This document shows, in pieces, positions 795 through 18,146 of a stretch of DNA of 28,630 nt. The translations under genes were made by a program, and so were the position numbers. Each line of letters starts with the position of its first letter. Position 1 is the stretch's first letter. A model generated the notes under the pieces. It saw only the letters and a program-made list of their open reading frames with translations, made no database searches and was not told the origin of the DNA. The stretch lies in the UHGV virus genome UHGV-0195556; one strand, 5' to 3'. The stretch comes from a virus.

Positions 795-810
795 ATGGTG
801 TCCCCTGCAG
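795..810. repeat. att core copy 1 (ATGGTGTCCCCTGCAG), outer boundary of the satellite on the dsdC side
   Basis: Exact 16-bp direct repeat of 11759-11774; reverse complement matches the recalled 3' end of tRNA-Arg argW (CTGCAGGGGACACCA). Confidence 0.7.
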
Positions 811-1210
811 GAATGTGATTAATGAATTAAGAAATTGATTTTTATGAATATAAAATTTTTATTGTCATAATTCTATACACTTAGTTATACACATAAGAAA
901 AAATCAGTGATTTTTATGGACTGGGTGTATCTTCCCCAGCCCAGCCCAGCCCCAACAAACCTAATGCAGTCTTTAGTTTACAAATTGTTACATATATTAT
1001 TCGTCAAATTTCATTATTATCAGAGATTAACAAGCATTGGCAAAGGTTGTCACTCAGTAATACTCACCATTATTAACTATTATTCACCATTATTTAGTAT
1101 TCAAATTCTTTGAATGAGTTTGAAAGTGCCAGTCTTTACGTATTAATTCTTCTGTGCAAGTATATATACACCCAATAGAGACTAATTAAGTCTTAGTATA
1201 AATATCTAAT

Positions 1211-1453
1211 GTGAAGGACATAGCCATGAGCTTATTGCCTCGGGAAAACGCACCCCAAAAAAGATATAGACTTCTGAGAATATCAGAAGTGATTAATTTG
1301 ACTGGCTTACCCAAGTCAACAATTTATCTAAAGATAAAGAATGATGAATTTCCGAACCAAGTTTCTATCGGTTCTCGTTCTGTTGCATGGGTGGAGCATG
1401 AAGTTAATGAATGGATAGAGAAGAATATTCTCAATAGAAAATTAAACTCCTAA
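1211..1453 (+). CDS. AlpA-family phage regulatory protein (small DNA-binding activator/excisionase-like)
   Basis: 80-aa ORF with MerR-like HTH typical of AlpA family; first gene inside the att boundary; AlpA is a marker of P4-like satellites. Confidence 0.7.
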   Translation: MKDIAMSLLPRENAPQKRYRLLRISEVINLTGLPKSTIYLKIKNDEFPNQVSIGSRSVAWVEHEVNEWIEKNILNRKLNS

Positions 1454-1470
1454 ATTGAGGTGGCAAATAT

Positions 1471-2331
1471 ATGGTTGACAATGTTTTTAAGAAGAAATTG
1501 GCATCAATTAAGAACGAACATGTGTCGGTGTTAGATAGTTACAAAGTAAGATCATTTAAAGAGACTCATAGCGACACGGCCTGTATTGTGCGTATTATTG
1601 AAATATATTCACTGAATAAGCTGCGAGCTAAAGGTGAAAAGCTGTATTCACTTACGGGGTTAACAGTACCTGATACGGAAACTGTGGCGAATGAGATCAA
1701 CCTGCTCCTGAGCCGTTATGCCCAGTTGTGTCGTCAGGAAGAGGAAGAGTTATCTTTCCGGCAGCGTGAAGTGACAAATGCGGAAGTTGCATGGAAAAGC
1801 ACATTCTCAAAAAACGGCGTCAGTAGCATTGCTGAAGCCAAAACGAATAAAATGGGGCATGCTGAACGAGCGGATGCTGAACGGTATTACCATCTGGCTG
1901 TTTCCCGGTTGAATGAACAACATAGTCGATTGAGCACGATCAAGCTTTTGCCGGGAGTACTGGCCGATGAAGGAAACTACATTGGGAAGGGAATCGATAA
2001 GCGTTTACTGAATATATTTCCTCAATCCGGCCAGATCCCTGCTGATTTTATTTCTGTATTTAATGACAGTGACGTTGTCCGTGATATTAAATTTATTACT
2101 GATGCACTCAAGTCTTTATCTGATTCCGTGAGTGAAATTATTAGTCGTTGTAGCGTTCCAACTGATCGTTATGTATTAAATAACGGTGGAATGGCAAGAG
2201 CTATGGCTTACAGGGAGTACTATCGAGCAGATAATTATGTATTACGTTCAGTCGTAAGTGACCGGGATTATGTTGAGCATGTAATGAAATACAATCTGGT
2301 TACTGAGTACAAAAATAAAATCTTTTCTTAA
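1471..2331 (+). CDS. hypothetical protein; candidate capsid-assembly factor by position (immediately upstream of capsid homologue)
   Basis: 286-aa ORF with RBS (GAGGTGG) 18 nt after the alpA stop; no family recognised by eye; does not match my recollection of P2 gpO or P4 Sid/Psu. Confidence 0.45.
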   Translation: MVDNVFKKKLASIKNEHVSVLDSYKVRSFKETHSDTACIVRIIEIYSLNKLRAKGEKLYSLTGLTVPDTETVANEINLLLSRYAQLCRQEEEELSFRQREVTNAEVAWKSTFSKNGVSSIAEAKTNKMGHAERADAERYYHLAVSRLNEQHSRLSTIKLLPGVLADEGNYIGKGIDKRLLNIFPQSGQIPADFISVFNDSDVVRDIKFITDALKSLSDSVSEIISRCSVPTDRYVLNNGGMARAMAYREYYRADNYVLRSVVSDRDYVEHVMKYNLVTEYKNKIFS

Positions 2332-2353
2332 ATACTTAAAAAGGTGAAAAACT

Positions 2354-3358
2354 ATGTATGCCTTCAAAACTGAAAGGCCGGACGCAGCACGTCGTTATCA
2401 TAATAAATTCGTCACTGGCACTAACTATCAGGAAGAATCAAACAGACGCTTTGCATTAAGCGAACCTACTGAAAATATACTGCGTACCTCAATTCTGGAA
2501 TCCGGGTGGCTTATTAAAAATATTACCCTACGTGATGTTAACGCCGTGTCAGGTAATGCCGTCAATATTGGTGCCAGTGAACTGTATACCGGACGTGTGG
2601 ATGGTGGCCGTTTCCACAAAAAAATGGCAATCAATGGTACGGAGTTCTTTCTGACAGAGACGGATACCTGCGCCCGGATCAGCTATTCCGATATGTCTCA
2701 TATTTACCATACCGGCGTGCCGGATGAGTTTGAGAAAACGGTTGAGAGCTTTTTTGCCCAGGCATATGCGCTGGACATGCTGCGGGTCGGTTTCAACGGT
2801 GTGTCGATTGCAAATACTACAAACCCGGAAATCAATAAAAAAGGCGAGGATGTCAATATTGGCTGGCATGCACTGGCGAAAGCCTACGGGAACGGAAAGC
2901 AAATCATCTCTGAGCCTGTCACTCTGGGAGAGACTGGCACCTGGAAAAATATTGATGCTCTGGCCAACCATCTGATTACAGAGCTTATTGCTGAGCAGTT
3001 TCGTGAAGATCCTCGTCTGGTTGTACTGGTTGGGGCAGAGCTGGCAGCACATCAACGCCTGAAGTTATTTAATGCCGCAGACCGCCCGTCTGATGTGAAT
3101 GCGGCACAGATGGCTACAAGTTCTGTTGCTGGCCGCTTTGCGTTTATTCCCCCGTTTATGCCGGGTAAGCGTCTGGCAGTAACGACGCTGGATAATCTGC
3201 ATATTTACACTCAGGCGATAACACGCTGGTTTCGTGCTGAGTTTGATGATGAAAGCAGTGAATACGTGCATTCCTACCTGCGCAATGAAGGTTATGCACT
3301 CGGTGAACCTGAACTGTACGCGGCTGTTGATGAGTGCACCCTGACGTTTGCGGATTGA
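2354..3358 (+). CDS. P2-family major capsid protein homologue (GpN-like)
   Basis: 334-aa ORF with RBS; colinear blocks match recalled P2 gpN (VGFNGV vs AGFNGV; DPRLVVLVGAEL vs DPDLVVIVGRQL; LDNLHIY vs LENLSIY; ESGWL vs ESSDFL). Confidence 0.65.
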   Translation: MYAFKTERPDAARRYHNKFVTGTNYQEESNRRFALSEPTENILRTSILESGWLIKNITLRDVNAVSGNAVNIGASELYTGRVDGGRFHKKMAINGTEFFLTETDTCARISYSDMSHIYHTGVPDEFEKTVESFFAQAYALDMLRVGFNGVSIANTTNPEINKKGEDVNIGWHALAKAYGNGKQIISEPVTLGETGTWKNIDALANHLITELIAEQFREDPRLVVLVGAELAAHQRLKLFNAADRPSDVNAAQMATSSVAGRFAFIPPFMPGKRLAVTTLDNLHIYTQAITRWFRAEFDDESSEYVHSYLRNEGYALGEPELYAAVDECTLTFAD

Positions 3359-3371
3359 CTTAGCGACAGAA

Positions 3372-3398
3372 AGACCCGCTCAGAGGCGGGTCTCGTTT
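3372..3398 (+). terminator. putative rho-independent terminator after capsid gene
   Basis: Inverted repeat AGACCCGC / GCGGGTCT with 6-nt loop followed by a short T-containing tract. Confidence 0.4.
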
Positions 3399-3496
3399 AC
3401 AGCATCAGGAAAAATGAAGAACTATTTTTAAGCAGAGGCTTAAGCATGCCAGCGTTAATTAATCCAGGCAATGATCAGTTTTCGGTTATAAATTTC

Positions 3497-3526
3497 TTGC
3501 CTCACCAGGAATGCGCGGGATATAGT
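3497..3526 (+). promoter_or_regulatory. putative sigma70 promoter driving the immunity/replication operon (P4 PLE analogue)
   Basis: TTGCCT then 18-bp spacer then TATAGT, located upstream of the seqA-like element. Confidence 0.3.
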
Positions 3527-3556
3527 TTAAAGGTTGCCGCAAAATCGGCAGCCGGG

Positions 3557-3581
3557 CGTAGGAACCCGTGTTATCTGAAGG
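3557..3581 (+). promoter_or_regulatory. seqA-like target site of the immunity RNA
   Basis: GCGTAGGAAC...TATCTGAAGG, repeated at 3781-3821 and complementary to 3735-3756. Confidence 0.5.
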
Positions 3582-3588
3582 CGATACT

Positions 3589-3611
3589 ACACGCGCTAGG
3601 CGTGTTTTTTT
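3589..3611 (+). terminator. rho-independent terminator directly downstream of the seqA-like site (immunity terminator candidate)
   Basis: Stem ACACGC/GCGTGT with 5-nt loop followed by TTTTTTTGTGT. Confidence 0.55.
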
Positions 3612-3696
3612 GTGTCGCAGCTTTGACTCACCTAAAATTTATGGTGTGGTGGCTGATTGTATTTTTTTATTTTTTACGCCACATCATCAGAATTAT

Positions 3697-3775
3697 GGTA
3701 GTCCAGGCGGGGCAGCTTTCGGGCTGGCCGGTATCCTTCAGAGCCGGTATTCCTACCCCCGTCTGGGCTACCACC
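3697..3775 (+). ncRNA. structured small RNA, P4 CI-RNA-like immunity factor candidate
   Basis: 16-bp closing stem GGTAGTCCAGGCGGGG / CCCCGTCTGGGCTACC (two G-U pairs) enclosing internal hairpins; interior segment CCTTCAGA..TTCCTAC is complementary to both flanking seqA/seqC-like repeats; no credible ORF. Confidence 0.5.
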
Positions 3776-3780
3776 CATGA

Positions 3781-3821
3781 GCGTAGGAACTCCGGTGGTA
3801 GCGTTACCCGCTATCTGAAGG
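3781..3821 (+). promoter_or_regulatory. seqC-like target site of the immunity RNA
   Basis: Second copy of GCGTAGGAAC...CTATCTGAAGG immediately upstream of the RBS of the next CDS. Confidence 0.5.
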
Positions 3822-3832
3822 AGGTTGCCATT

Positions 3833-4036
3833 ATGGCTACAGTCCCTGCTTTATCTCACCCTGAATTTACCTTTGTCTTTCTGGCTGTCCGCCGTACAGA
3901 CCGTGATGCCCGTCCACGCCCTGTGCGTGTAATCGCAGAATGCGAGCATGCTGCACGCCTTAAACTTGCCACTGAATTTATCCTGAGCTTTGCTGCCCGT
4001 ATCCCTGTGAAAAGAGCCGGGGAGGTGGTTGCATGA
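3833..4036 (+). CDS. hypothetical protein (first gene of the replication operon)
   Basis: ATG preceded by GAAGGAGG; stop overlaps the next start (ATGA); the 196-aa track ORF 3446-4036 is rejected upstream of this ATG. Confidence 0.5.
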   Translation: MATVPALSHPEFTFVFLAVRRTDRDARPRPVRVIAECEHAARLKLATEFILSFAARIPVKRAGEVVA

Positions 4037-4269
4037 AATCCATGAATTTTAAGCAAGGCTGCATATTGAGTGAACAGGGGGAGAGTCGTCTGTTACGGGC
4101 GGCACTGGCCAGTGAGTTTCTTGCAGAGGTCTTGTCCGTGCCCACAGTGAATGGAGCGAGAACTGTTTCAGCGGAAGGCGCTGCGGCTTTAGTGGCCTGT
4201 ATTGCCGAACAACTGGATGGCGTTGTTAAGGAAACCAGCACAATTAAGGGAGTGATGCGCGATGAATAA
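4033..4269 (+). CDS. hypothetical protein
   Basis: 78-aa ORF translationally coupled to neighbours on both sides. Confidence 0.5.
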   Translation: MKSMNFKQGCILSEQGESRLLRAALASEFLAEVLSVPTVNGARTVSAEGAAALVACIAEQLDGVVKETSTIKGVMRDE

Positions 4270-4672
4270 TAATCAAAATTTAAAGGCGCATGCTTTACGA
4301 ACAGCAGTCTTACGCTACTACATTGCTGATGCATTCATTTCCTTAATGGTGCGTGTTCATAATGAACCTGTTTATATTGAAGATGGCGAACGAATAGAAC
4401 TCTCCCACGAAAAAGTGGTGAGTAATATTATTTACCATATTGAAATGCCGTGGGTGAATGAGTTTGGGGCTGATGCTGGTTGCATACTGGCCGCAGAGAA
4501 ACTGGAAAAAATGCTTAAACCAGGCTTTATGTCAGAAAATATTCGCCTGTCAGTTTTTGGTGTCACAGAGATGCGTGAGGTTTACCGGGATATTATTTTC
4601 GGAGCACCTGATGGCGAACTACCCGAAGGTTTTGAATTTGTGAAGCCGGAAGGTCAGGAGGTGCTGCTGTGA
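4262..4672 (+). CDS. hypothetical protein
   Basis: 136-aa ORF; stop overlaps the GTG start of the primase gene. Confidence 0.5.
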   Translation: MNNNQNLKAHALRTAVLRYYIADAFISLMVRVHNEPVYIEDGERIELSHEKVVSNIIYHIEMPWVNEFGADAGCILAAEKLEKMLKPGFMSENIRLSVFGVTEMREVYRDIIFGAPDGELPEGFEFVKPEGQEVLL

Positions 4673-7356
4673 AAACACCGTCTGTATCCACGATTTCCGG
4701 AGCTGCAATTGGGCGCTGGCCTTATATCCTGTCAGCATTAGGTATTAAAGTACCGTCCGCAGGACATCATGGGGCTTGCCCTGCCTGTGGTGGAAAAGAT
4801 CGTTTTCGACTGGACGATAAAGCGGGGCGAGGGACGTGGTTTTGTAATCAGTGCGGTCATGGCGATGGTCTTGATCTGGTTCGTCTGGTGACAGGAAGAA
4901 AGATAAAAGAAGTCGCCGGGATGGTATCTGAGGCGCTTGCATTACCAGAAATACAGGAGAAGCCCGCATTGCCAGCCAGGAAAAAGGCCGCAGGAAAAGA
5001 AGCGGGCGCGGAGCGATATACCAGACTCAGACAGCAGTCCTGCAATGGTGAGCCGGTCTATCTGACAAATAAGAGCTTACACGGGTATTCACTTCCCTTG
5101 CTGTCACAGCCTTTGAATCTGGCCGGAATAACATTTTCCACCGGTTCATTACTGCTGCCTTTGACGGATATTTCCGGGAATATTACTGGTGGCCAGCTTA
5201 TCAATCCTGACGGGGATAAAAGTCTGCTGCCCGGTAGCCAGCTGTCTGGCGCATTCATTGCCCTGACCGATATACCCGCTGAAACACCTGAACAGGTGAT
5301 TATCACTGAGGGTTTTGCCACGGCGCTTACCGTCAGTCTGCTGACTGAAGGATGGATCGTGGCGGCTGTCGCTGCCACCAATTTACTGAAGGTGACGGAG
5401 CAGATCCGAAAACGCTGGCCGGAAACCCGGATCATTCTGGCCGGAGATAATGATCTGGCTGACGGCAAAGAAAACACCGGGCGTATTCAGGCAGAGAAAG
5501 CCGCCAAAGCGGTGGATGGCTGGGTAACGCTCCCTCCGGTACGCCATAAGGCTGACTGGGATGATTATCGGCAGGAAGTGGGGAAAGAACGGGCGAGAGA
5601 TGCCTTTCGTGAAGAAATGACGCTGCATGGCAAAGGGCAGACCCGTTTACCAGAAGGGTTCCGGCTGACAAAAGAATATTTGTGGTACGACAAGCTGGTT
5701 AATAAGTCTGATGGTGATACAGAGATACGTAATATCAAAATTTGCAGTCCGTTGCGGGTGACGGCAATCACCAGTGATGCTGATGGAAGTAATTACGGGC
5801 GTTTGCTGGAATGGGAAGATACCAACGGAAACAGCCGTAAATGGGCAATGCCGATGGAGATGCTGGGCGGTAGCGGGGAAGAACTGCGCCGCGTTCTGCT
5901 GGTTAACGGGCTTTCTTACATCAACATTAACGGCATGGCCAGAGCATTCCTGATGGAATATATCTCGCTGTGTAAACCGGACAGAAAAGTAACCTGTGTG
6001 AATAAAACTGGCTGGCACGGCGGGGTTTACGTTCTCCAGGATGAAGTGATAGGGCGCGAAGCCCAGTCAGTCATCTTACAAACATCGAGTGTGCAGGGGC
6101 GTGATTTTCGTGTCAGCGGCACATCAGAGGGCTGGCGTGAAAATATAGGCCGTTATTGCATAAAGAATGCCCGTCTTGCCTTTGCGGTGAGTCTGGCATT
6201 TGCTGCCCCCCTTCTGAAACTGGTTGGTATCGGCGGTGGAGGTTATCACCTCAAAGGGGAATCCACAGACGGTAAAACCACGACGATGAAAGTGGCTGCA
6301 TCAGTATGTGGTGGAACAGATTTCTGGCATACGTGGCGGGCGACGGGGAATGCCTTAGAAGGAACGGCGAGCCGCCGCAATGATGCCACGCTGATGCTGG
6401 ATGAAATCCGGGAGGTTGACGGCAGGGAGGCGGGAAATATCGCTTATATGCTGGCTAACGGGCAGGGCAAAGCCAGAGCCAGAACAGATGGTTCGGTAAG
6501 GGAAACCAACCGCTGGAATCTGTTGTTTCTGTCTACCGGGGAACTGTCACTGGTAGAGCATGCGGCAAGCGCCGGGGAACGTACGTATGCCGGGGTTGAG
6601 GTCAGAATGATCCAGATCCCAAGCGATTCGGGCAAGTATGGCGTGTTTGAAGAACTTCATGGCTTCAGTAGCGGGAAAACCCTGGCTGAGCATCTTGAGC
6701 AGCACGTAGCGCATTATCATGGTGCACCATTCCGCGACTGGCTGTATTGCCTGACCGCTGATCTGCCGGAACTGACCAGTCAGGCGAAAGCCTTATTGAA
6801 AGAGTATACCCGAAGGCTGACGCCGGAAAATGCCGGGAATCAGGTTGGCCGGGCTGTTACCCGTTTTGCTCTGGTTGCGATGGCCGGGGAGCTGGCCACA
6901 AAAGCGGGCATCACAGGATGGCCGGAGGGAGAGGCCTTTCGTGCCGCTCAAAGCTGTCTGGCTGCATGGATGGCTGACCGGGGCCATACAGCTAATCAGG
7001 AAGATAAAGCGGCACTTGAACAGGTTCGGGACTTCATGACGCGTAATCAGTTCAGTCGGTTTGCTGACTGGAATGACGACAGGAACCGGCCTGTTTCAAT
7101 GATGGGATTCAGAAAAGTCGATAAAGGAGACAACGTGACAGAGCCGGTTGTGACGTTCTACGTTCTCCCGTCAGGCTGGAAGGAGATCTGTAAGGGATTT
7201 GACTCGCGTAAGGTGGCCAGGTTGTGTGTGGACGCGGGCTGGCTGAAACCCGGTGAAGATGGCCGGACGCAAAACAGCATTCGCCTGCCAGAAATAGGGC
7301 TTAAACGTGTGTACCAGTTCAATACACAGGTACTGGGAAGCGCTGAACCTGAGTGA
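4669..7356 (+). CDS. P4 alpha-like bifunctional DNA primase/helicase (zinc ribbon + TOPRIM + P-loop NTPase)
   Basis: 895-aa ORF with GTG start after AGGAGG; N-terminal CPACGG...CNQCGH zinc-binding motif; TOPRIM-like ITEGFATAL..AGDND; Walker A GESTDGKTT. Confidence 0.8.
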   Translation: MKTPSVSTISGAAIGRWPYILSALGIKVPSAGHHGACPACGGKDRFRLDDKAGRGTWFCNQCGHGDGLDLVRLVTGRKIKEVAGMVSEALALPEIQEKPALPARKKAAGKEAGAERYTRLRQQSCNGEPVYLTNKSLHGYSLPLLSQPLNLAGITFSTGSLLLPLTDISGNITGGQLINPDGDKSLLPGSQLSGAFIALTDIPAETPEQVIITEGFATALTVSLLTEGWIVAAVAATNLLKVTEQIRKRWPETRIILAGDNDLADGKENTGRIQAEKAAKAVDGWVTLPPVRHKADWDDYRQEVGKERARDAFREEMTLHGKGQTRLPEGFRLTKEYLWYDKLVNKSDGDTEIRNIKICSPLRVTAITSDADGSNYGRLLEWEDTNGNSRKWAMPMEMLGGSGEELRRVLLVNGLSYININGMARAFLMEYISLCKPDRKVTCVNKTGWHGGVYVLQDEVIGREAQSVILQTSSVQGRDFRVSGTSEGWRENIGRYCIKNARLAFAVSLAFAAPLLKLVGIGGGGYHLKGESTDGKTTTMKVAASVCGGTDFWHTWRATGNALEGTASRRNDATLMLDEIREVDGREAGNIAYMLANGQGKARARTDGSVRETNRWNLLFLSTGELSLVEHAASAGERTYAGVEVRMIQIPSDSGKYGVFEELHGFSSGKTLAEHLEQHVAHYHGAPFRDWLYCLTADLPELTSQAKALLKEYTRRLTPENAGNQVGRAVTRFALVAMAGELATKAGITGWPEGEAFRAAQSCLAAWMADRGHTANQEDKAALEQVRDFMTRNQFSRFADWNDDRNRPVSMMGFRKVDKGDNVTEPVVTFYVLPSGWKEICKGFDSRKVARLCVDAGWLKPGEDGRTQNSIRLPEIGLKRVYQFNTQVLGSAEPE

Positions 7357-7380
7357 TTATCGCGTGAGTCTTATTTTTAT

Positions 7381-7570
7381 GAGGTAACACTGGTAACAGA
7401 GGTAACACCCGTTACTGATGCGGTTCTTCAGTGTTACCAGTCAAAAATACTGACTGGTAACAGAGGTAACAAAAAATGGTGTGTTACCACGCGTTACCTC
7501 TTGATTTTGCTAACTGGTAACAGATTAAATCCTTTTAAATCAATAGCGTTACACGTGTTACCAGTGTTAC
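7381..7570. repeat. iteron array, candidate satellite replication origin
   Basis: At least 9 copies of GGTAACA / TGTTACC in both orientations within about 190 bp immediately downstream of the primase gene; resembles P4 type-I iterons (TGTTCACC) as recalled. Confidence 0.6.
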
Positions 7571-7638
7571 ACGTTCAGAACAAGAGGTAGGGATCCAAAT
7601 CCCTTCTTCTGGCGGGCAACAGTATAGGGCACAGAACG

Positions 7639-7911
7639 ATGAAGATGATGAGAATGTACTGCCCCACATGTCAGGCAGTAGCACGGATAGGTAAAACAAA
7701 CAGGAAACACCCACAACTGTACGATGTGTACTGCTATTGCTCTAATGTGGAGTGCGGTCACTCGTTTGTGATGAATGTTGCTTTCTCCCATTCCGTTAGT
7801 CCAAGCGCGCTGAACGGGCAGGGAAGGGTTAAAGAGCTGATTGATGCAATTCCACCCGAGGAACGGGAAAAGGCTTTAAAGTTGCTGCTGGCTGCGCAAA
7901 AGAATGGGTAA
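7639..7911 (+). CDS. Ogr/Delta-family zinc-finger late-gene transcriptional activator
   Basis: CPTCQ...CYCSNVEC four-cysteine motif as in P2 Ogr / P4 Delta; exact start codon uncertain (several in-frame ATG). Confidence 0.7.
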   Translation: MKMMRMYCPTCQAVARIGKTNRKHPQLYDVYCYCSNVECGHSFVMNVAFSHSVSPSALNGQGRVKELIDAIPPEEREKALKLLLAAQKNG

Positions 7912-8590
7912 AGTATGCGTCGGGAATGGCCGATCTGTTCCCGGAACCTGAACACAGGATTTCAGTTTATACGGTCATAAAATTATTATTTTTCAACTGG
8001 TTATCTTCTTCATGTTTCACAAACCTTCATAAAATCACACACCTAAAATTAATTATCCATTTAATATCATAGAGTTGCGTATTCAGGCCATAGATTCGAC
8101 GGACAGTAAAACTGAAAAAAAATGAATTTCTTTTCATTCTTTTCAGTTCCTGTATCGCAGTACATCTCGAGGACTGGCACGGACTGGCGGTATCGTTTGT
8201 AAAAAATCCAGGCTGAAAATTTTTAGTGATATGAAAACCGCAGGCGGGTGCGGTGTAGTGCCGTTTTGGTCTGTCGAGCGTATATTTTCCTTTTTCACGA
8301 TTGCTGCATATCAAAACGAATGTGCAGATATCAGGCCGTGTCAAACCGTGAATCGTGGAGCCTAAATGCCCAAACTACGTTTGTAGACCTAGCTAGGGGA
8401 AGGTTTCCACATATACTGCTACCTATCTTCCAGTCGCTGGTGAGGATCAAGGTAAGCTAACTGGTGAACAAGAAAAGTACTTTCGTATCTTGCGTACTCG
8501 TTTTTTTTGATTAGTATGTACAGGTAGTAACTGGATGGTGAGAATTCGTCATAACTTATCAAATTGCATGATGTTTATAGAGTATGAGTA

Positions 8591-9472
8591 ATGAGTCATA
8601 ATAAAAAGGAATATGCTAAATTTTTCCGTCGCCCCATTTTTTCATCCTTAGCAAAAGGTAAGGATATTTCGGATTTATTTGGGAGTTTTGATTCTTACTG
8701 CTATGAAACACTGTTTTCAAACAATGATAATAATGAACATGAGATTTCACTAAGGGATTTATTTACATCATTATATGATTTTTTGCGTCTGAATTATAGA
8801 AATGAATATGTTTATAAGACAGCACTTGTCAATAAAATAATATTCGGTAAGCACAGCCCAAAAACAAGTTCGTCGTCCATAGAGTTACCAATTAAAAACT
8901 CTATAGTGGATGTTGCGGTGTTTAATGGTACGTCTACAGCTTACGAGATTAAGACAGAGTATGATTCACCAAAAAGGTTGATTACTCAAGCCCCTGATTA
9001 TTTGGATGTTTTTGATAAAGTGTATATAGTTACACATCCAGAGTATGCAAGTAAATATTGTGCTTTAAATCTCCCCAGAGTGGGAGTTATGGTTTTGAAT
9101 AAAAAAGATCAATTGAGTGTCATTAAGGAGGCAGATTCAAATATTGATTATATTAAAAGTGACAGCTTGTTTTCAGTTCTTAGAAAGGAAGAGTTCTTAG
9201 CTATAATAGAAGATTACACTTCAACTAAAATAAATATGCCTAACGGATTGGTTTATGAATATTGTAAAGAGATATTCATGCAGATGCCATTAAACATAGC
9301 AAATAAATACTTTATCTCTGCTATGAAAAAAAGATGTAACGATAAAGTTTTTTTGGATTATATTTATTCTCTTCCAGCATGTTTACGTGTTTTAGGTTAT
9401 GCAACACCATTATCAAGAAAGCAAAAAGAATTCATCATGAATTTGATGGATGTAAAAATTAAAATTTGTTGA
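8591..9472 (+). CDS. hypothetical protein with PD-(D/E)xK-like nuclease motif; cargo gene A
   Basis: 293-aa ORF in strongly AT-rich DNA; motif SIELP...IVDVAVF...AYEIKTE fits an E...D...ExK restriction-endonuclease-like signature. Confidence 0.55.
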   Translation: MSHNKKEYAKFFRRPIFSSLAKGKDISDLFGSFDSYCYETLFSNNDNNEHEISLRDLFTSLYDFLRLNYRNEYVYKTALVNKIIFGKHSPKTSSSSIELPIKNSIVDVAVFNGTSTAYEIKTEYDSPKRLITQAPDYLDVFDKVYIVTHPEYASKYCALNLPRVGVMVLNKKDQLSVIKEADSNIDYIKSDSLFSVLRKEEFLAIIEDYTSTKINMPNGLVYEYCKEIFMQMPLNIANKYFISAMKKRCNDKVFLDYIYSLPACLRVLGYATPLSRKQKEFIMNLMDVKIKIC

Positions 9473-9493
9473 TATCCTCAGGAGTTGTAAGTT

Positions 9494-10444
9494 ATGTATA
9501 GCCCATATTTGTATGCGAGAAGTACAGAGTTATTATGCCTTAGGGACCTCGTTGCGAAGGGAGTTAGCCTAAATGGTCTGCTACCAATTTTAGAACCAAT
9601 TAACGTCAATACGAGAAATTTATTAACATGTTTAAATGTTTGGAATTCTGACATAATTGTTATCCTTAATCCTTATCAGGAAGATTTTTCTTCACACAAT
9701 AACGTCTTAACTTTAAATCAAAATTTATCAAGTGTATTAACAAATAAAAATAATATCATCTCTGGATATCTTATTCAGCCCAATACAACGATTAATGATA
9801 TTAATAATTGGTTGAATGCTAACTTAAATAGACGAGTTGCACTTCTATATGATAATCCATCATTATCCAACTCTGATATTCAGTTGTTGGCGACAAATCA
9901 ATTGATTAGTTATCATGTTGTTTTAAATAATAAAATGCTTCCTAATCAGTGCGCTCTTCTTCCTTTGTCGAAGTTAATTATTATTAGCGATAACTTTAGA
10001 AAGTTAGCAAAAAATGCTGATTATAATGGGCCGGAACTTTTCACGCACGCACATCAATTCGTGGGACAAAATTACTTAGGATTTGGCGATTATACAATTA
10101 CTGGCCAGGTACTAGATCTTGGAGGTGGTCAACCTTCTGCTGTTGCCGCACATTTGGTGTTCAAGAATTTACAAGCGAATACAGTTTGGATTCGTCATTT
10201 TGTATCAAGCAACACGCAACGAGGAAGTTCAAATGTTACTGCAAAATTTTTAGATGTTTCAGATCAAATTACAAATCTTGTTCCCCAACATCCAACCCAG
10301 TTTGGCAGCAACATTGGTCTTAACTATTATTATTACAATAGTCAACCAACTGTAAGGCATTTCCCTGGGTTGCCAAAAAACAAACAGTATCAAATTACTC
10401 ACCATATTTGTTTCATGCTGGATTTAATAGCAGGTCGTATTTAA
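9494..10444 (+). CDS. hypothetical protein; cargo gene B
   Basis: 316-aa ORF with AGGAG RBS 21 nt after gene A, same AT-rich composition; contains GFGDY and LDLGGGQPSAVAAH motifs; 3' end overlaps the convergent integrase by 21 bp. Confidence 0.55.
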   Translation: MYSPYLYARSTELLCLRDLVAKGVSLNGLLPILEPINVNTRNLLTCLNVWNSDIIVILNPYQEDFSSHNNVLTLNQNLSSVLTNKNNIISGYLIQPNTTINDINNWLNANLNRRVALLYDNPSLSNSDIQLLATNQLISYHVVLNNKMLPNQCALLPLSKLIIISDNFRKLAKNADYNGPELFTHAHQFVGQNYLGFGDYTITGQVLDLGGGQPSAVAAHLVFKNLQANTVWIRHFVSSNTQRGSSNVTAKFLDVSDQITNLVPQHPTQFGSNIGLNYYYYNSQPTVRHFPGLPKNKQYQITHHICFMLDLIAGRI

Positions 10445-11599
10445 TAAGCTAGCGTACCATTCCATCATTACTTGTCGATCTTTAATATATTGCGCATGAT
10501 TGTAAGTACCTCGAATAGAGTTCTTATCAACATGCGCAAGCTGCATTTCAATCCAGGCACTTTCAAACCCATGCTCATGCAAGATGGTGCTCATGGTATG
10601 CCTGAAACCGTGACCCGTTAACCGACCGTGATAACCCAGTAGTTTTATCACTTTGTTGATGCTGGCTTCGCTCATTGGTTTACTGACGTCATTCCGGCCA
10701 GGGAAAACGAGGCTGTAATTCCCTGTTATTTCTTGCAGCTTTTTCAGGATATTGATCGCCTGAGTTGATAACGGAACCAGATGGGGGCGGCGTTTCTTCA
10801 TCCGTTCTTTGGGGATCTCCCATAAGGCATTATCTAAATCAAACTCAGCCCATTCCGCTGCACGTAGTTCAATTGTTCGCACGCCTGTTAGCATCAACAG
10901 CTGCGTGGCGTATTTGGTAACTAAACTGCCCTGATAGTTATCCAGAGCATTAACGAACTCGGGCAACTCGCTTTCAGTCAGGAACGGGAAGTGTTGGGTT
11001 TTAGGTTTGTTGAGTGCGATAGCTAAATCGGGTGCAAAATTATACTTTGCTCTACCAGTGGCAACAGCATAACGAAGCACTTCACCACAGCGGCGGCGGA
11101 TCTTACTGGTTTGCTCTAGCGCACCTCTTTTCTCTATTTTTTGCAGGACGGTTAGCAGTTCTAATGGTTCAATCTGCTCAATTGGGCGCTGGCCGATAAA
11201 AGGAAAAATATCCTTTTCCATACAATTGAGAACCTCTTTTGCATAACCCTCTGACCAGGTGGCTTTTTTCGATGAGTGCCATTCTCTGGCCACAGACTCA
11301 AAGCTGTTCTCATGCGCGAACTGCAAAGCAATCTTATCTGCTTTTCTGGCTTCACTTGGGTTTATCCCGTTGGCTAACATCGAACGCGCTTCATCACGTT
11401 TGGTACGTGCCTGTGCCAACGACACATCGCCATATACGCCAAAGGAAATCATCTTAGGCTTACCTGCAAAGCGATAGCGAAAACGCCAGCCTTTACTGCC
11501 CGCTGTGTCGATCAGGAGTGATAGCCCCATACCATCGTTAAGCGTATAGGGTTTGTCCTTCGGTTTTGCTCTTTTTATTTGGATGTCAGATAGCAGCAT
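10424..11599 (-). CDS. tyrosine recombinase, P4-type integrase
   Basis: N-terminal AKPKDKPYTLNDGMGLSL...WRFRY and C-terminal HGFRHT...Y motifs typical of P4-family integrases; start taken at MLLSD (the upstream in-frame ATG at 11647 is less likely). Confidence 0.85.
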   Translation of the reverse strand: MLLSDIQIKRAKPKDKPYTLNDGMGLSLLIDTAGSKGWRFRYRFAGKPKMISFGVYGDVSLAQARTKRDEARSMLANGINPSEARKADKIALQFAHENSFESVAREWHSSKKATWSEGYAKEVLNCMEKDIFPFIGQRPIEQIEPLELLTVLQKIEKRGALEQTSKIRRRCGEVLRYAVATGRAKYNFAPDLAIALNKPKTQHFPFLTESELPEFVNALDNYQGSLVTKYATQLLMLTGVRTIELRAAEWAEFDLDNALWEIPKERMKKRRPHLVPLSTQAINILKKLQEITGNYSLVFPGRNDVSKPMSEASINKVIKLLGYHGRLTGHGFRHTMSTILHEHGFESAWIEMQLAHVDKNSIRGTYNHAQYIKDRQVMMEWYASLLNTTCY

Positions 11600-11758
11600 G
11601 TGTATAGAAAAAAGATCGAACTCAGTTATACACAATGTTATACGCAAAGATGTATAGATTCCATTAGAAATAATGGTACTTTGCTGGACGAGTATAAGGA
11701 GATGATATCAGTTAAAACAGTGAGTTATGGAATTAATTGAACTTAGTGAGAAGTGTTC

Positions 11759-11774
11759 ATGGTGTCCCCTGCAG
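11759..11774. repeat. att core copy 2 (ATGGTGTCCCCTGCAG), junction between satellite and lambdoid prophage
   Basis: Exact copy of 795-810; about 75 bp from the torI stop. Confidence 0.7.
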
Positions 11775-11847
11775 ACATCTACTTGAAGCGGCAGGGGATT
11801 GATTAGAATGGTATTTTTTAGATGTGAGAAATATTTTACCCGCTATT

Positions 11848-12048
11848 TTACCCATTGGCGCGGCTTAAGAGCTTATTTTTGAATTCACAATGGTCACGAT
11901 ATAACCATCTTGCTCGCCCGTGGATAACTTTGGCTTTTGGCAGGTCGCCGGACTTAATCCGGTCATAGATGAAGGTTTTACCGAAGCCAGTATCGGCCAT
12001 GATGAATTTCAAATCAACCAGTGAATCAGGCTGTAGTTCGTGTTGCAT
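11848..12048 (-). CDS. torI: TorI-type excisionase / recombination directionality factor
   Basis: 66-aa protein MQHELQPDSLVDLKFIMADTGFGKTFIYDRIKSGDLPKAK... matches recalled KplE1 TorI; located next to the att core. Confidence 0.85.
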   Translation of the reverse strand: MQHELQPDSLVDLKFIMADTGFGKTFIYDRIKSGDLPKAKVIHGRARWLYRDHCEFKNKLLSRANG

Positions 12049-12105
12049 GAGTGCTATCTCCGAATAGGGAATCGAACCTGCAAATCAGGTAATAAAAAAC
12101 CGCCA

Positions 12106-12273
12106 TCAGGCGGCTTGGTGTTCTTTCAGTTCTTCAATTCGAATATTGGTTATGTCTGCATGCGCTATCTGCGCCCATAGCATCCAGTGGTCATAGCAGT
12201 CATTGATGTTCTCTGCTTCGATAACTCTGTTGAATGGCTCTCCATTCCATTCACCTGTGACTCGAAAGTGCAT
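12106..12273 (-). CDS. small hypothetical protein (55 aa)
   Basis: ORF below the track length cutoff, translated by hand (MHFRVTGEWNGEPF...); stop lies within a hairpin followed by a T-run. Confidence 0.3.
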   Translation of the reverse strand: MHFRVTGEWNGEPFNRVIEAENINDCYDHWMLWAQIAHADITNIRIEELKEHQAA

Positions 12274-12361
12274 TTATCATCTCCATAAAACAAAACCCGC
12301 CGTAGCGAGTTCAGATAAAAGAAATCCCCGCGAGTGCGAGGATAGTTACTTGTTCATATTA

Positions 12362-12661
12362 TTAATCGTCAATGTATTTTGAGCATTGTGGGCAATCATC
12401 AATCCCACAATACGATTCATATGCATCCTTTATTGCGTCGCGGGCTTCAGTAAGAGTATTGAATAAGTTGCAGCTATTATCTTTTTGATATAGGTAAGTT
12501 CCTAATTTATAAGCAGAAGAAGCATCATTTCCGCTGTCTAAAATTACATCGTTATGGATTCTGCACCTTGCAAGAACTCCTGATCCCATAAGGGTCTGCA
12601 TAGCCCATTGCTCTTGATCTTCACACAAATCATGAATGCTCATTTCAACACCTCTCTTCAC
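12362..12661 (-). CDS. hypothetical cysteine-containing small protein
   Basis: 99-aa ORF in an AT-rich island; C-terminal CGIDDCPQC motif; start may be the internal MSIHDL. Confidence 0.45.
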   Translation of the reverse strand: MKRGVEMSIHDLCEDQEQWAMQTLMGSGVLARCRIHNDVILDSGNDASSAYKLGTYLYQKDNSCNLFNTLTEARDAIKDAYESYCGIDDCPQCSKYIDD

Positions 12662-12757
12662 GTTTCACACACGTTAAGATTAACAGTGTTTTTACATGCT
12701 TTGGAAGATTTATTTTATAAAAACTCTTTTAATACAAATAGATATAATAGTTCACTA

Positions 12758-13426
12758 TTATAGCTCCTTTAATCGAGGCGGTTCTGGTAGAGGCATCCAG
12801 TGGGTTACCTCTTTGAGATACAGGTCTTCGCCATCACCGTCATCCCAAGTTGGATTGCCATCATTAAACCAGTCGACATATACGCCGACCTGAGTGTTGG
12901 GGATGTTTGGTGGGTAGTTGTTTTTAAAGTCAGCTGCTAACACATAGCATTGTCGCTCTCCCATTTCTGGCATTCGCTCACTACAGCTTATCCAACCATC
13001 CGGAGTTACCGGATAGTTGCCGGGTTCTTTAATGTGCAAGCGAGGCTCACCATCTTTTGGCTCAGGCCACTGGCGCTCCATGTTGATCTTCAATTTATCT
13101 TCCATAGCAGCGGTAATTTCAGCATCGCTGATGCCAGCACGGCGCTGTGCATCCCACAACAGAAACTGCATATCAGCCCACTCGCTAAGATCGTCTGGTT
13201 CGGCTGCGGCTTCAAGTGCCTCTTTTGAGAGATGTTTCAGCGGACCAATGGGGCCAACGCAGCCAAATGTGGAGTCAGACCATTTGGCATGCTCGTGGCG
13301 AATCTGTTCGCGTTCCAGTGATGCCAGTGCAATTCGTGCCAGTTCCATTTGTTCGCCACGAGTAAGTCCGTTATCAAGCGGATTTTTAATGAATAATTTG
13401 ATACGTTCTTTGGTTATAGCGCTCAT
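12758..13426 (-). CDS. phage early protein with DUF551-like C-terminal domain
   Basis: Start at MSAITK with AAGGAG RBS, immediately after the upstream stop; C-terminal W/D-rich segment typical of DUF551 proteins of lambdoid prophages. Confidence 0.5.
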   Translation of the reverse strand: MSAITKERIKLFIKNPLDNGLTRGEQMELARIALASLEREQIRHEHAKWSDSTFGCVGPIGPLKHLSKEALEAAAEPDDLSEWADMQFLLWDAQRRAGISDAEITAAMEDKLKINMERQWPEPKDGEPRLHIKEPGNYPVTPDGWISCSERMPEMGERQCYVLAADFKNNYPPNIPNTQVGVYVDWFNDGNPTWDDGDGEDLYLKEVTHWMPLPEPPRLKEL

Positions 13427-13427
13427 A

Positions 13428-13967
13428 TCACTCTCCTTTGATGCGAATGCCTGTTGCAATGCTGTTTATGATGCTGTCAGTGCATGGGGTAGAAAGCTGG
13501 GCATCTCCAGCAATTCTCATGACCTCAACATCTGCATATCGAATACCGAGGTGTATCAGACCGGCTATACCTGACTTAAGCCGAGCATTTTCCATAAACA
13601 GATCCTTTGCCCGCTGTTTTTCTGCCTCAAGCTCAACGCGCAACTTCCCTACCGTTAACGCAATATCCTCGTTCTCTTGGTCGCGGCGTTTGATGTATTG
13701 CTGGTTTCTTTCCCGTTCATCCAGTAGTGCAAGCACGGTAGCCGGATTAGCCCTGGCAACAAAATCCCGGACTGGCTTACAACCAATCTCCGCAATGGGT
13801 TGATACGATGTGTAGCCATGCTGTCTTGTATAACTACCGTGACGAATAACGAAAAAATCACCGTTTATTTTTTTTTTAGCTTGCCACTTATCTTTACCGG
13901 CTTTCACTGCCGCCTCACGCAGTGCCTGATAGTCAATCTTGCTCACTGCTTGCCTCCTTTGCGCCAC
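13428..13967 (-). CDS. Ead/Ea22-like early protein
   Basis: [12 protein letters not shown] motif and coiled-coil region as in Ea22-like proteins. Confidence 0.5.
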
Positions 13968-14106
13968 ATAGCATTCAGATATTTGTTTTGATTTACTGAC
14001 GGAAAAGAATTTCTCTTAAGCAATTCCTCTCTCGATGGCATTGGCTTTACGCGTTGGCGAATAATCATTTCTGCCGGAAGAATGCCGGGATTGTATGCAA
14101 GTCCTC

Positions 14107-14399
14107 TCATGATTTACTCTCCACGAGCTGGTCAATAGCCATGCTAAGTGACACACCTAAAGTCTCGATATGCTGCTGAATATCCTGTAGCGTCTGCGCC
14201 TGAGATAACAGGATTTCACGGTTGCATAACTCTTTAACCAGATGCTCAAACTTGCTGTAATAACCGATACGACTTAGTGTTTCTTTCCCTGCATTCTCGC
14301 CTTCTTTAATAATTCCTCTTTCGCTAAGAATCAGATCGTGTTTGGTTCCGGTAATAACGTATTTTCCGAGGTCGATGTTTAGCTTCATTGTTTTCATTG
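14107..14399 (-). CDS. hypothetical protein
   Basis: Start at MKTMKL with GAGGAA RBS; the longer track ORF (to 14547) is rejected. Confidence 0.45.
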
Positions 14400-14407
14400 T
14401 TAATTCC

Positions 14408-14701
14408 TCAGTCATTACTGATAGCGCCATAGCGTGAGCGGTAATTACGCAGGCGCGGGTCAATTTCAGGGAAGTGGGTATATGTGGCTTTGCGTAATGG
14501 GCGGATTGATGTCTGGTAAATTCGCTCGCGTTCTTCTTTCTCTGCAAGCCATATACAATGGCGAAATTCCTTTTCCTCTTTCGTTTCCTGCGGTAGAGAC
14601 ATTATCAGGTCGTAGTTTTTCCTGAATTTATCCAGCACCTCCGATACGGAATTGCCGGAACAGCGGCGCGGGTCATCCGCACCATACAGAGGCGCTGGCA
14701 T
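14408..14701 (-). CDS. hypothetical protein
   Basis: 97-aa ORF in the operon between ssb and downstream early genes. Confidence 0.4.
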   Translation of the reverse strand: MPAPLYGADDPRRCSGNSVSEVLDKFRKNYDLIMSLPQETKEEKEFRHCIWLAEKEERERIYQTSIRPLRKATYTHFPEIDPRLRNYRSRYGAISND

Positions 14702-14724
14702 AATGGAATCCTTATTTTGCTAAT

Positions 14725-15713: not shown

Positions 15714-15802
15714 ATGTTTGTTCTCAGAATGGACATGGCCCAAGGAAATAACGCTGATTTAATACTTCAGTCTTTGCCGCATTTAAAAATACGCGAACAC
15801 CT

Positions 15803-18138: not shown

Positions 18139-18146
18139 ATCTCACC

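Follow-up and report, generated by a model that had tools for sequence, protein, structure and literature searches.

Bacteriophage P4 and its helper P2 are the textbook satellite–helper pair. Current detection of P4-like satellites depends on the Psu-Delta-Sid module (PMC10085698). Homologues of capsid proteins encoded by satellites are already known, namely SaPIbov5 Ccm and the capsid proteins of the cf-PICIs. Ccm is described in PMC8569155 as a satellite capsid homologue giving small T=4 shells. The cf-PICIs encode their own capsid protein and obtain other virion parts from the helper, and their head and packaging set is a fuller one, with head-tail adaptor, connector and large terminase (PMC10085698). 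Furthermore, a capsid gene is found in 21 of the 29 reference Gram-negative PICIs (PMC10111431). PmCI172 encodes a capsid homologue and forms small heads on contractile tails (PMC6092414), and a capsid gene of the lambda E type is present in HE-PICI 11capE, which is closely related to EcCICFT073 (PMC10111431). For EcCICFT073, lambda served as helper, and a deletion of its gene c1499 failed to bring back plaque formation by lambda (PMC6092414).

Here, a 28,630-nucleotide stretch of DNA from the virus genome UHGV-0195556, referred to below as the window, was analyzed. It contains what is most likely an integrative phage satellite with a P4-related backbone, whose mobilization by a helper we infer. 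Directly behind alpA, the first gene of its cluster, this element carries a gene of 286 codons, termed ORF286 here, and a capsid gene. Literature searches for an earlier description of this satellite family found none, and we could not find the widespread branch to which it belongs described in the literature searched.

Boundaries and backbone of the element

The satellite comprises positions 811-11774 (10,964 bp) and is integrated at argW (Table 1). Strain SK1144 carries the same satellite with 99.99% identity between dsdC and a tRNA-Arg gene, which bears out the argW integration proposed in the initial annotation of this DNA. In SK1144 the right att copy is the 3' end of argW, and the identity to the window ends at 11774, 15 bp inside argW. 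A tRNA search of the window found none because a second prophage separates the satellite from argW. This adjacent prophage, which extends from 11775 to the window end and carries an S24 CI repressor, DnaB and a Q antiterminator, was rejected as helper; it is lambdoid, not P2-type.

Table 1. Features of the satellite and its boundaries in the window
Feature	Position	Strand	Remarks
attL core	795-810	.	ATGGTGTCCCCTGCAG; left satellite boundary; 16-bp exact direct repeat with 11759-11774
alpA (Vis-like regulator/excisionase)	1226-1453	+	PF05930 E 6.1e-20; 46% identical to P4 ORF88/Vis
ORF286, 286 aa	1471-2331	+	orphan, helical throughout; candidate for scaffolding the satellite capsid or setting its size
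P2-family major capsid protein, 334 aa	2354-3358	+	HK97-type by homology
196-aa ORF, Icd-like / Phage_ASH	3446-4036	+	PF10554 E 3.1e-32; RefSeq annotation; overlaps RNA genes
Antisense-RNA immunity region, P4/P1-type	3533-3778	+	isrK-like 3533-3610; C4/CI RNA 3691-3778
Two small conserved ORFs (78 aa; 136 aa)	4033-4672	+	phrog_38507, phrog_5991
Alpha-like primase-helicase, 895 aa	4669-7356	+	Zn ribbon, Toprim, DUF927 (Pfam); phrog_1139 E 4.5e-185
Ogr/Delta-type late activator, 90 aa	7639-7911	+	PF04606 E 5.1e-14
Candidate cos region	8107-8290	+	invariant core GGCGGGTGCGGTGTAGTGC at 8243-8261
Cargo hotspot, variable	8591-10444	+	sce7726-family 8591-9472; sce7725-family 9494-10444; ~30% GC
P4-type tyrosine integrase	10424-11647	-	Arm-DNA-bind_3, Phage_int_M, Phage_integrase; RefSeq start matches 11599
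attR core	11759-11774	.	right satellite boundary; repeat of 795-810

In agreement with the genes that had been assigned from the sequence, Pfam recovered AlpA, an Ogr/Delta activator, a P4-type integrase and a primase with Zn-ribbon, Toprim and DUF927 domains. The satellite and P4 are both about 11 kb in size, integrate at a tRNA site through an integrase of the P4 type, which in the satellite shares 40% identity with P4 Int over a length of 406 aa (E 8.6e-100), and encode a Vis/AlpA regulator as well as an Ogr/Delta activator. The primase domain is likewise shared, residues 5-317 of the primase-helicase being 38% identical to P4 alpha. Homologues of the 136-aa ORF in three related loci (L005, L009 and L014) carry PF17345 (DUF5375), which is also the annotation of P4 ORF106. 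Both elements have a defence hotspot beside the integrase gene, a cos-like site between delta and this hotspot, and a Peduoviridae helper, which is putative in the present case. A CI-RNA-like region, also claimed at the outset, was confirmed by Rfam matches above the gathering score to isrK (RF01394, 68.9 bits) and C4 antisense RNA (RF01695, 81.1 bits) and by 71% nucleotide identity between window positions 3518-3913 and the P4 cI region (P4 8285-8707). The 196-aa ORF is 58% identical to the P4 'cI ORF'; a BLASTP match between it and P4 epsilon was not found despite its Phage_ASH profile match. The RefSeq start of alpA matches position 1226, and the longest ORF begins with a GTG at 1211.

In contrast to P4, the satellite has no Sid, Psu or BLASTP-detectable epsilon and instead carries the capsid gene and ORF286. 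The helicase part of its alpha-like protein is DUF927 and not that of P4, and outside residues 5-317 the primase-helicase gave no match to P4 alpha. Its 90-aa Delta consists of one domain and is most similar to ESSI-2 Ogr (50% identical to the Ogr-like ESSI-2 gp32, E 1.5e-34, versus 21% to P4 delta, E 0.003), and the delta gene is co-oriented after alpha and not part of a sid-delta-psu operon. Of the seven P4-like core components of PMC10085698, integrase, AlpA and Delta were found and Sid and Psu were absent, with alpha matched in its N-terminal primase part and Ash/epsilon through the Phage_ASH profile. The P2/P4 cos 19-mer was absent as well.

The cargo genes match NF033832 (E 9.6e-52) and NF033831 (E 1.1e-71) of NCBIfam as well as the PADLOC model cll (E 1.2e-18). 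In relatives the same hotspot position is occupied by Kiwa, retron Ec48 or SLATT and RT genes, and in six elements the total length stays at 10-11.2 kb despite the differing cargo. The ORF286-capsid pair is present in 450 of 5,426 complete E. coli genomes. Satellite DNA was not found in any deposited phage or virion record.

The capsid gene and its upstream partner

The initial annotation had described the 334-aa product as colinear with P2 gpN. This assignment holds, as the protein matches the Pfam family PF05125 (Phage_cap_P2) with an E-value of 9.5e-67 (225.8 bits at a cutoff of 27), residues 26-327 aligning to positions 16-326 of the 327-position profile, and phmmer aligned it with the P2 gpN chain 7jw1_A (E 2.7e-16, residues 30-287). 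It also matches phrog_70, major head protein (E 1.8e-86), and the P2-family capsid 7oz4_A (E 3.6e-21, residues 21-319). The equivalog cutoff of NCBIfam TIGR01551 was not reached (204.6 versus 219.65 bits). Judged by its sequence, the satellite capsid protein is thus a divergent member of the P2-family capsids. RefSeq names it P2 family capsid protein (WP_000270796) despite the sub-cutoff NCBIfam score.

For the protein of the window, the identity to the capsid proteins of ESSI-2-type phages amounts to 47-48% (48% over 326 aa), as compared to 23% for gpN; the corresponding ranges over all comparisons are 47-50% and 22-26%. The satellite and ESSI-2-type capsids are colinear without large indels. 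A shortening by about 20 residues at the C-terminus relative to gpN had also been noted. The protein is indeed 23 aa shorter, but the difference is not purely C-terminal and is made up of a 10-aa internal gap and about 13 C-terminal residues. Since the ESSI-2-type phage capsids (340 aa) are equally short relative to gpN, the shortness is a trait of the lineage and not a satellite-specific truncation. Strong purifying selection acts on the capsid gene from end to end, with pN values of 0.17-0.32 against saturated pS and a dN/dS of about 0.08-0.17 where computable, and the protein has 330-339 aa in every full-length copy.

For ORF286, listed at the outset as a 286-aa unknown protein, searches of Pfam, NCBIfam, PADLOC and PDB sequences gave no match, and the PHROG match was marginal only. 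The AlphaFold2 (AF2) model consists entirely of helices (pLDDT 87.2, pTM 0.81), and a fold search with this model found no relative, nor any relation to Sid or Psu. BLASTP also gave no match to either protein, and the hhalign probability was 0.6% for Sid and 0.3% for Psu. These comparisons agree with the initial annotation, which had reported the absence of Sid and Psu homologues and had named a Sid homologue in the place of ORF286 as the contrary case. ORF286 likewise showed no match to PF05929 (Phage_GPO_N), with hhalign probabilities of 0.1% for P2 gpO and 0.6% for the ESSI-2 scaffold. When 1.84 billion representatives were searched exhaustively with a profile, only 53 ORF286-family clusters came up, 36 of them with a length of 276-308 aa, and no link from this family to any other. 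In the broad family alignment the ends (approximately residues 21-80 and 221-260) are conserved and the helical middle is variable; pN is 0.35-0.52 at saturated pS.

Members of the ORF286 family were found only adjoining satellite capsid genes. Conversely, the pair is conserved in all related elements examined across Enterobacterales. Wherever an examined locus covers the sequence upstream of the capsid gene, a member of the ORF286 family is the immediate upstream neighbour, and this holds for at least 15 genera. The underlying genome pattern scan used the capsid alignment, the broad ORF286 alignment being too divergent. Across loci the identities of ORF286 and capsid co-vary; alpha does not follow. 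Genes for TerL, portal, TerS or sheath were found neither in the window element nor in any related locus examined, and no head-tail adaptor genes were seen in the gene lists of related loci.

As in the gpO-gpN operon of P2, a protein of about 285 aa is followed by the capsid protein, and the capsids are homologous. By gene order, the ORF286 family is thus placed where the P2 O-N operon holds the scaffold gene O, although ORF286 itself has no similarity to gpO. A sister sub-clade from Yersinia, Pectobacterium, Brenneria, Rahnella, Proteus and Providencia has kept a gene of about 170 codons that corresponds to the gpO protease domain; unlike in P2, it is protease-only and located after instead of before the capsid gene. 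Its product retains D19, H48 and S107 but is devoid of the C-terminal scaffolding half of gpO, and therefore another protein must scaffold in these elements. From the sequences, this protease-only gpO implicates ORF286 as the scaffold. Since no known scaffold resembles ORF286, the role proposed for it depends on its position, its inheritance together with the capsid gene and the shortened gpO of the sister elements. The clade of the window element has no protease gene of its own.

A candidate packaging site shared with ESSI-2-like phages

The 19-nt core of the candidate cos region has one exact match in the window and none in 100 shuffles. Downstream of delta it was found, exact or with one mismatch, in all satellites examined, at a position equivalent to that of the P4 cos. 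Within the phage collection it matches only ESSI-2-like phages, and it sits at the physical ends of the virion-derived genome records of ESSI-2, ev015 and ev040, two of these three ends being marked by leftover Nextera adapter. Because of its conservation in the satellites and its location at ESSI-2-type virion genome ends, we regard this core as a candidate cos. In about 80 of 120 core-bearing viral contigs, a gpD gene of ESSI-2 type is located close to the core. Other genes of this type are present in a further 8 contigs, and satellite-type genes in about 17, of which one (L109) contains a phage portal gene as well. The cos of P2 and P4 was considered as packaging site and rejected, as the P2/P4-type 19-mer GGCGAGGCGGGGAAAGCAC had no match in the window at up to 5 mismatches and blastn of P4 and P2 gave no cos similarity.

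Thus, three independent links, the closest capsid, the closest late activator and the shared terminal 19-mer, suggest that the helper is likely an ESSI-2-like peduovirus rather than P2. The genomes of the putative helpers have 28.8-30.6 kb, which gives a satellite/helper ratio of about 0.36-0.38, compared to 0.35 for P4/P2. ESSI-2-like prophages are rare in E. coli (29-48 of 5,426 genomes, as against 450 with the satellite; near-complete head modules occur in 29), and contact with the helper would therefore take place mainly by infection.

In the window, one box of the form TGT-N12-ACA precedes alpA by 73 nt and another precedes delta by 74 nt. As Ogr/Delta boxes they were rejected, being kept at only 3 (alpA) and 4 (delta) of 23 loci; the same pattern also has no match in the O/P promoter region of P2 itself. 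A conserved late-promoter box across the 23 loci was not found.

Proposed role of the ORF286-capsid pair

On balance, we lean towards the view that ORF286 and the capsid protein form a satellite head module which redirects assembly to small capsids with an ESSI-2-like helper. Its most likely function would be to make small capsids, or to remodel capsids to a small size, for a genome of 11 kb. The suggestion in the initial annotation that a variant capsid subunit redirects helper capsid assembly by a route other than that of P4 is thus supported in part. After infection by or induction of the helper, the satellite would be derepressed, replicate with its own primase and then express alpA-ORF286-capsid. 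On the helper portal, ORF286 would scaffold the satellite capsid protein or determine the size of its shell, whether this protein assembles by itself or together with helper capsid protein. The resulting small shells, probably T=4, would hold 11 kb but not the helper genome of about 30 kb. At the shared cos, the satellite DNA would be cut and packaged by helper terminase. The helper would also provide lysis, the tail and head completion and, in the clade of the window element, any proteolytic maturation through its gpO. An 11-kb cos genome could alternatively be packaged as multimers in full-size heads.

By analogy, SaPIbov5 Ccm appears to be the best functional counterpart, as it is likewise encoded by a satellite of cos phages and homologous to the helper major capsid protein. 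The host phylum, the SaPI/PICI backbone and the capsid lineage are all different, however, and the description of Ccm in PMC8569155 includes no dedicated ORF286-like partner. The satellite resembles the cf-PICIs in having its own capsid protein, and it would likewise take other virion parts from the helper. It differs from them in that satellites of the present type have only the capsid, ORF286 and sometimes the protease; without a terminase or portal they would still need those of the helper. The Gram-negative PICIs EcCICFT073 (c1499) and PmCI172 are also AlpA-regulated integrative satellites with a helper-type capsid gene, yet the capsid of HE-PICI 11capE is lambda E-type and that of the satellite belongs to the P2 family. 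Judging from such comparisons, a satellite capsid gene need not be essential. Tentatively, and with appreciably less confidence than the head module itself, we consider a satellite class that is partly capsid-autonomous and stands between P4, which takes everything from its helper and remodels it by means of Sid, and the cf-PICIs, which make complete heads. The shell would then consist solely of satellite capsid protein templated by ORF286, a scaffold setting the size and having an unseen fold, in replacement of the gpO scaffolding domain, and portal, terminase, head completion and tail would come from ESSI-2-like helpers.

Other readings differ mainly in how the satellite capsid protein would act. 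It might be a minority subunit that co-assembles with helper capsid protein, for example in pentamers or at selected hexamer positions, and forces a smaller shell, with ORF286 as chaperone or accessory protein and not as main scaffold. Ccm provides the precedent, filling the pentamers of T=4 procapsids otherwise made mostly of helper capsid according to PMC8569155. Co-assembly is conceivable at 47-50% identity between colinear proteins without large indels, and since it lacks a protease gene, the clade of the window element relies on head proteins of the helper in any case. Nevertheless, we consider this unlikely. The gpO protease beside the capsid gene of the sister elements suggests that their procapsid module stands more on its own, and the strict pairing with a gpO-sized family in gpO position suggests a dedicated scaffold. 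Moreover, mixed capsomers may be difficult to form when the sequences of satellite and helper capsid diverge by more than 50%. Sister elements bear in a similar manner on a purely interfering role, in which capsid and partner would poison the assembly of ESSI-2-like or other P2-type phages in a dominant-negative way and be dispensable for satellite transfer. Their intact protease points to productive maturation. Helper interference is common among satellites, the capsid homologue of EcCICFT073 is not required (PMC6092414; PMC10111431), and the element carries other defence cargo, as do its relatives with Kiwa and retron Ec48 in the hotspot. However, every member has the pair in its core and in the same gene order, while true defence cargo is exchanged at the hotspot, the pair has no PADLOC match, and purifying selection over the full length of the capsid exceeds the apparent need of a poison subunit, which makes interference as the only function quite improbable.

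ORF286 could also be a highly diverged external scaffold of the Sid/Psu type acting on helper capsid protein in the manner of P4, with the capsid gene acquired secondarily. It is helical and near Sid in size (286 versus 244 aa), its conserved ends and variable middle are what a strut-like protein might show, and strong divergence is also seen in Sid and Psu, which are helical as well (PMC8628076). We hold this to be decidedly improbable. Finally, the gene order resembles P2 O-N and helper late genes can be captured by satellites (PMC10111431), so the two genes might be functionless remnants of a decaying P2-like prophage head operon captured by recombination. We give this hardly any credence, as both ORFs are intact, full-length capsid copies all measure 330-339 aa, pN values stay well under the saturated pS, and the synteny persists across many genera, with 421 of the 450 E. 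coli copies at least 99% identical.

Overall, 8% of the complete E. coli genomes harbour this satellite branch, which also occurs in many other Enterobacterales and brings along anti-phage cargo (for example sce7725/7726, Kiwa, retron Ec48). As the branch has no Psu-Delta-Sid module, it may be under-counted at present. If the proposed head module is correct, a dedicated pair of capsid and scaffold would be a third way to redirect P2-type capsid assembly, with a new scaffold fold and with an example of a helper O-N operon that was dismantled and repurposed. It would also point to a definite helper that can be cultured, namely the ESSI2_ev phages, which plaque on E. coli, so that the system would be directly testable, and it would have a bearing on how defence systems spread horizontally in clinical lineages.

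Satellite backbone and neighbourhood

A 16-bp direct repeat delimits a satellite of 10,964 bp (see the table). E. coli SK1144 has a copy, 99.99% identical, between dsdC and the tRNA-Arg gene argW, the right repeat being the argW 3' end. The sole length difference between the two copies is the number of units in a CCCAG pentanucleotide repeat inside the left end, with about 3-4 copies here versus about 12 in SK1144 (13791-13853 of the SK1144 locus L002).

Features of the satellite and the adjoining prophage
Feature	Position	Strand	Remark
Left direct repeat	795-810		16 bp
Satellite	811-11774		at argW
CCCAG repeat	935-952		
alpA			
ORF286	1471-2331		286 aa
Capsid gene	2354-3358		334 aa
isrK-like RNA and C4/CI antisense RNA	3533-3610, 3691-3778		Rfam
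Phage_ASH ORF, annotated 'Icd-like'	3446-4036		overlaps both RNA genes; Pfam match residues 26-141
orf78			
orf136			DUF5375-like
Primase			Zn-ribbon/Toprim/DUF927
Ogr/Delta (delta)			
19-mer, candidate cos	8243-8261		
sce7726 and sce7725	8591-10444		AT-rich cargo pair
Integrase			
Right direct repeat	11759-11774		16 bp
Lambdoid prophage	11775-28630		also Ead/Ea22; dATP/dGTP pyrophosphohydrolase
Its first ORF, excisionase-like	11848-12048	-	
Its S24 CI repressor	19179-19811	-	
Its DnaB helicase	21576-23027		
Its Q antiterminator	26880-27368		

The initial annotation had described P4-like backbone genes without Sid or Psu, P4 proteins that shrink the capsid. Comparison with P4 itself bears out both points: Int, AlpA/Vis and the alpha primase domain are 40%, 46% and 38% identical to those of P4, the immunity region matches at 58% on the protein and 71% on the DNA level, and no satellite gene matches Sid or Psu. 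Epsilon, ORF151, gop and beta of P4 likewise found no counterpart in this comparison. Thus, the backbone is P4-related and the helper-exploitation module of P4 is absent. Some of the 'Icd-like'/Phage_ASH annotation, and possibly of the Pfam family too, may be a translation of RNA genes, for which the P4 'cI ORF' is an earlier case. The cargo block (~30% GC) contains the sole PADLOC match, 'cll'. P4 cII (P4 1746-2540) is annotated as sce7726-family, with 39% identity over 61 aa, and the cargo may be related to the P4 gop-beta-cII locus.

Directly after the satellite attR core, the lambdoid prophage is inserted in tandem at argW. On the satellite side it lacks an integrase, the only adjacent one being that of the satellite.

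The capsid gene and its partner ORF286

ORF calling recovered both open reading frames behind alpA as first described. Gaps of 17 bp (alpA/ORF286) and 22 bp (ORF286/capsid) separate the three genes, which are co-oriented and so make up a tight cluster. The proposed relationship of the 334-aa protein to the P2 capsid was confirmed by profile searches (Pfam PF05125, E 9.5e-67; phrog_70, E 1.8e-86) and by matches to solved structures (the P2 capsid protein gpN, chain 7jw1, E 2.7e-16; 7oz4, E 3.6e-21), and RefSeq already names the gene P2 family capsid protein. By these matches the protein is a P2-family major capsid protein of full length. Its identity to gpN is only 23% and its score is slightly under the NCBIfam equivalog cutoff (204.6 vs 219.65 bits), which marks it, at the sequence level, as a divergent family member.

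Searches of Pfam, NCBIfam, PADLOC and PDB with ORF286 gave no match. The 105 close homologues (identity down to 43%), nearly all from Enterobacteriaceae, are neither named nor assigned a precomputed Pfam domain. An HMM search run exhaustively over 1.84 billion representatives returned only 53 clusters, of which 36 comprise proteins of 276-308 aa, the rest being fragments and one 886-aa protein with a short matched stretch. Family members are typically ~280-290 aa long, and in a broad alignment the ends (~21-80 and ~221-260) are conserved and the middle is variable. With pN values of 0.35-0.52 for ORF286 and 0.17-0.32 for the capsid (pS saturated, dN/dS ~0.08-0.17), both genes are under purifying selection.

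Related elements carry the same gene pair, ORF286 lying directly upstream of the capsid gene wherever the locus was long enough to judge. The layout recurs in contigs from Atlantibacter, Scandinavium and a metagenome that encode distant relatives of ORF286, with a capsid of 334 aa in each case. Capsid homologues with 50-68% identity occur within such elements in Salmonella, Yersinia, Providencia and Pectobacterium, and the ~280-311-aa proteins encoded upstream of them are related to ORF286 by hhalign (probability 99.3-100%). When one genome per species was scanned, 26 loci were obtained, in Citrobacter, Enterobacter, Franconibacter, Siccibacter, Kosakonia, Phytobacter, Intestinirhabdus, Buttiauxella, Erwinia, Brenneria, Yersinia, Pectobacterium, Rahnella and Proteus. 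In all those long enough to judge, DUF927 primase, delta and integrase follow the pair, and terL, portal, terS and sheath genes were absent from the scan loci. In E. coli, 450 of 5,426 complete genomes carry the module, 421 of the copies being at least 99% identical. Taken over all these loci, the pair is a module conserved throughout a large family of satellites.

The anti-phage cargo in the slot between delta and int differs among related satellites (L007/L008, L013, L014, L012), the variants being SLATT_5 with reverse transcriptase, Kiwa KwaA/KwaB, reverse transcriptase with a retron Ec48 effector, and a HATPase_c_3 protein with an unknown gene. In E. coli AR_0081 (NZ_CP027534.1) the head-module region matches in two pieces around an inserted IS1A with annotated transposase. 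A further scan record, NZ_JBQPOM010000063.1 (L152), labelled as the Firmicute Vagococcus sp. WN89Y, holds a complete satellite typical of Enterobacteriaceae (capsid identity 72%) and is probably mislabelled or contaminated.

In a sub-clade from Yersinia, Pectobacterium, Brenneria, Rahnella, Proteus and Providencia, a ~170-aa gene with a Phage_GPO_N match lies directly 3' of the capsid gene; the clade of the present satellite lacks a gpO-type protease gene. Aligned with gpO, the P2 scaffold-protease, and the ESSI-2 scaffold, the ~170-aa protein keeps D19, H48 and S107, which we take to be the gpO catalytic triad, and ends ahead of the C-terminal scaffolding half. Where the protease next to the capsid gene has lost its scaffolding domain, some other protein is implied as the scaffold, and ORF286 is the sole conserved candidate. 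We therefore infer that ORF286 would be the scaffold, the lost gpO scaffolding domain being the strongest indirect argument.

Candidate packaging site and likely helper lineage

The nearest phage capsids, at 47-50% identity, are those of the P2-related phages ESSI-2, ESSI2_ev015/040/129/239 and vB_YenM_324. Satellite delta has 50% identity (E 1.5e-34) with ESSI-2 gp32, an Ogr-like regulator adjoining the portal gene, vs 21% to P4 delta. The non-coding stretch 3' of delta contains a block common to divergent satellites, whose 19-nt core GGCGGGTGCGGTGTAGTGC is present exactly or with one mismatch in all satellites examined, always downstream of delta. Searched against the phage collection, this conserved region matched ESSI-2-like phages only.

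The ESSI-2 record begins with GCGGGTGCGGTGTAGTGC and ends with GCAGGCGGGTGCGGTGTAG, with a 15-nt terminal repeat. The ev015 record has its 3' end at GGCGGGTGC and at the 5' end a Nextera adapter followed by GTAGCGCC; in ev040 the adapter lies between GGCGGGTGC and GTGTAGCGCC. This transposase adapter (TCGTCGGCAGCGTCAGATGTGTATAAGAGACAG), left in the RefSeq genomes NC_049395.1 (ev015, positions 16-48) and NC_049393.1 (ev040, near 29630), is an artefact of the assemblies and by chance flags the physical DNA end. These sequences thus place a physical end inside the 19-mer in three virion-derived genomes, and the 19-mer looks like a cos cleavage site. An attachment site is ruled out, since the 19-mer is internal to the integrated element, and an origin common to phage and satellite is unlikely because the replication proteins differ (phage gpA-type nickase vs satellite primase-helicase). 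The 19-mer of the P2/P4 cos is absent from the window.

At least 120 IMG/VR contigs contain the exact core, by hand count ~80 with an ESSI-2-type gpD nearby and ~17 with satellite-type genes. In contig L109 it lies close to portal and Ogr-like genes, not gpD. This is closer to the P2 cos position, so ESSI-2-related phages may not all have the site in the same place.

Capsid, late activator and packaging site are three independent features by which the helper is likely an ESSI-2-like phage, not P2. Such phages are known as free isolates on E. coli. Their prophages are found rarely in E. coli and more often in Salmonella, Citrobacter and Enterobacter (PMC6969025). We found near-complete ESSI-2-like head modules 29 times in the 5,426 E. 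coli genomes.

Relation to known satellites and a model of assembly

Satellites with capsid homologues are already known. SaPIbov5 Ccm is a capsid homologue giving T=4 shells (PMC8569155), cf-PICIs carry the genes for heads of their own (PMC10085698), PmCI172 has a capsid homologue and yields small heads (PMC6092414), and 21 of 29 reference Gram-negative PICIs contain a capsid gene (PMC10111431). Open-access papers and bioRxiv gave no account of satellites that combine a P4-related backbone with a P2-type capsid, an orphan partner, an optional protease-only gpO and ESSI-2-matched cos and Ogr; with this scope, a description elsewhere is possible.

Element size is 10.0-11.2 kb in six satellites with differing cargo. 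The satellite/helper genome ratio is ~0.36-0.38 (helpers 28.8-30.6 kb), and that of P4/P2 is 0.35; the capsid is T=7 in P2 and T=4 in P4. No promoter evidence for the satellite held up on testing. As rivals to the model below we considered a Ccm-like minor subunit, a role in interference only, a diverged Sid and a relic, each of them less likely. In the model we propose, helper infection would lead the satellite to make ORF286 and its own capsid protein, which, alone or with helper subunits, would assemble into shells of a size to fit 11 kb. The helper terminase would package satellite DNA from the common cos, and the helper would provide portal, head completion proteins, tail and lysis functions.
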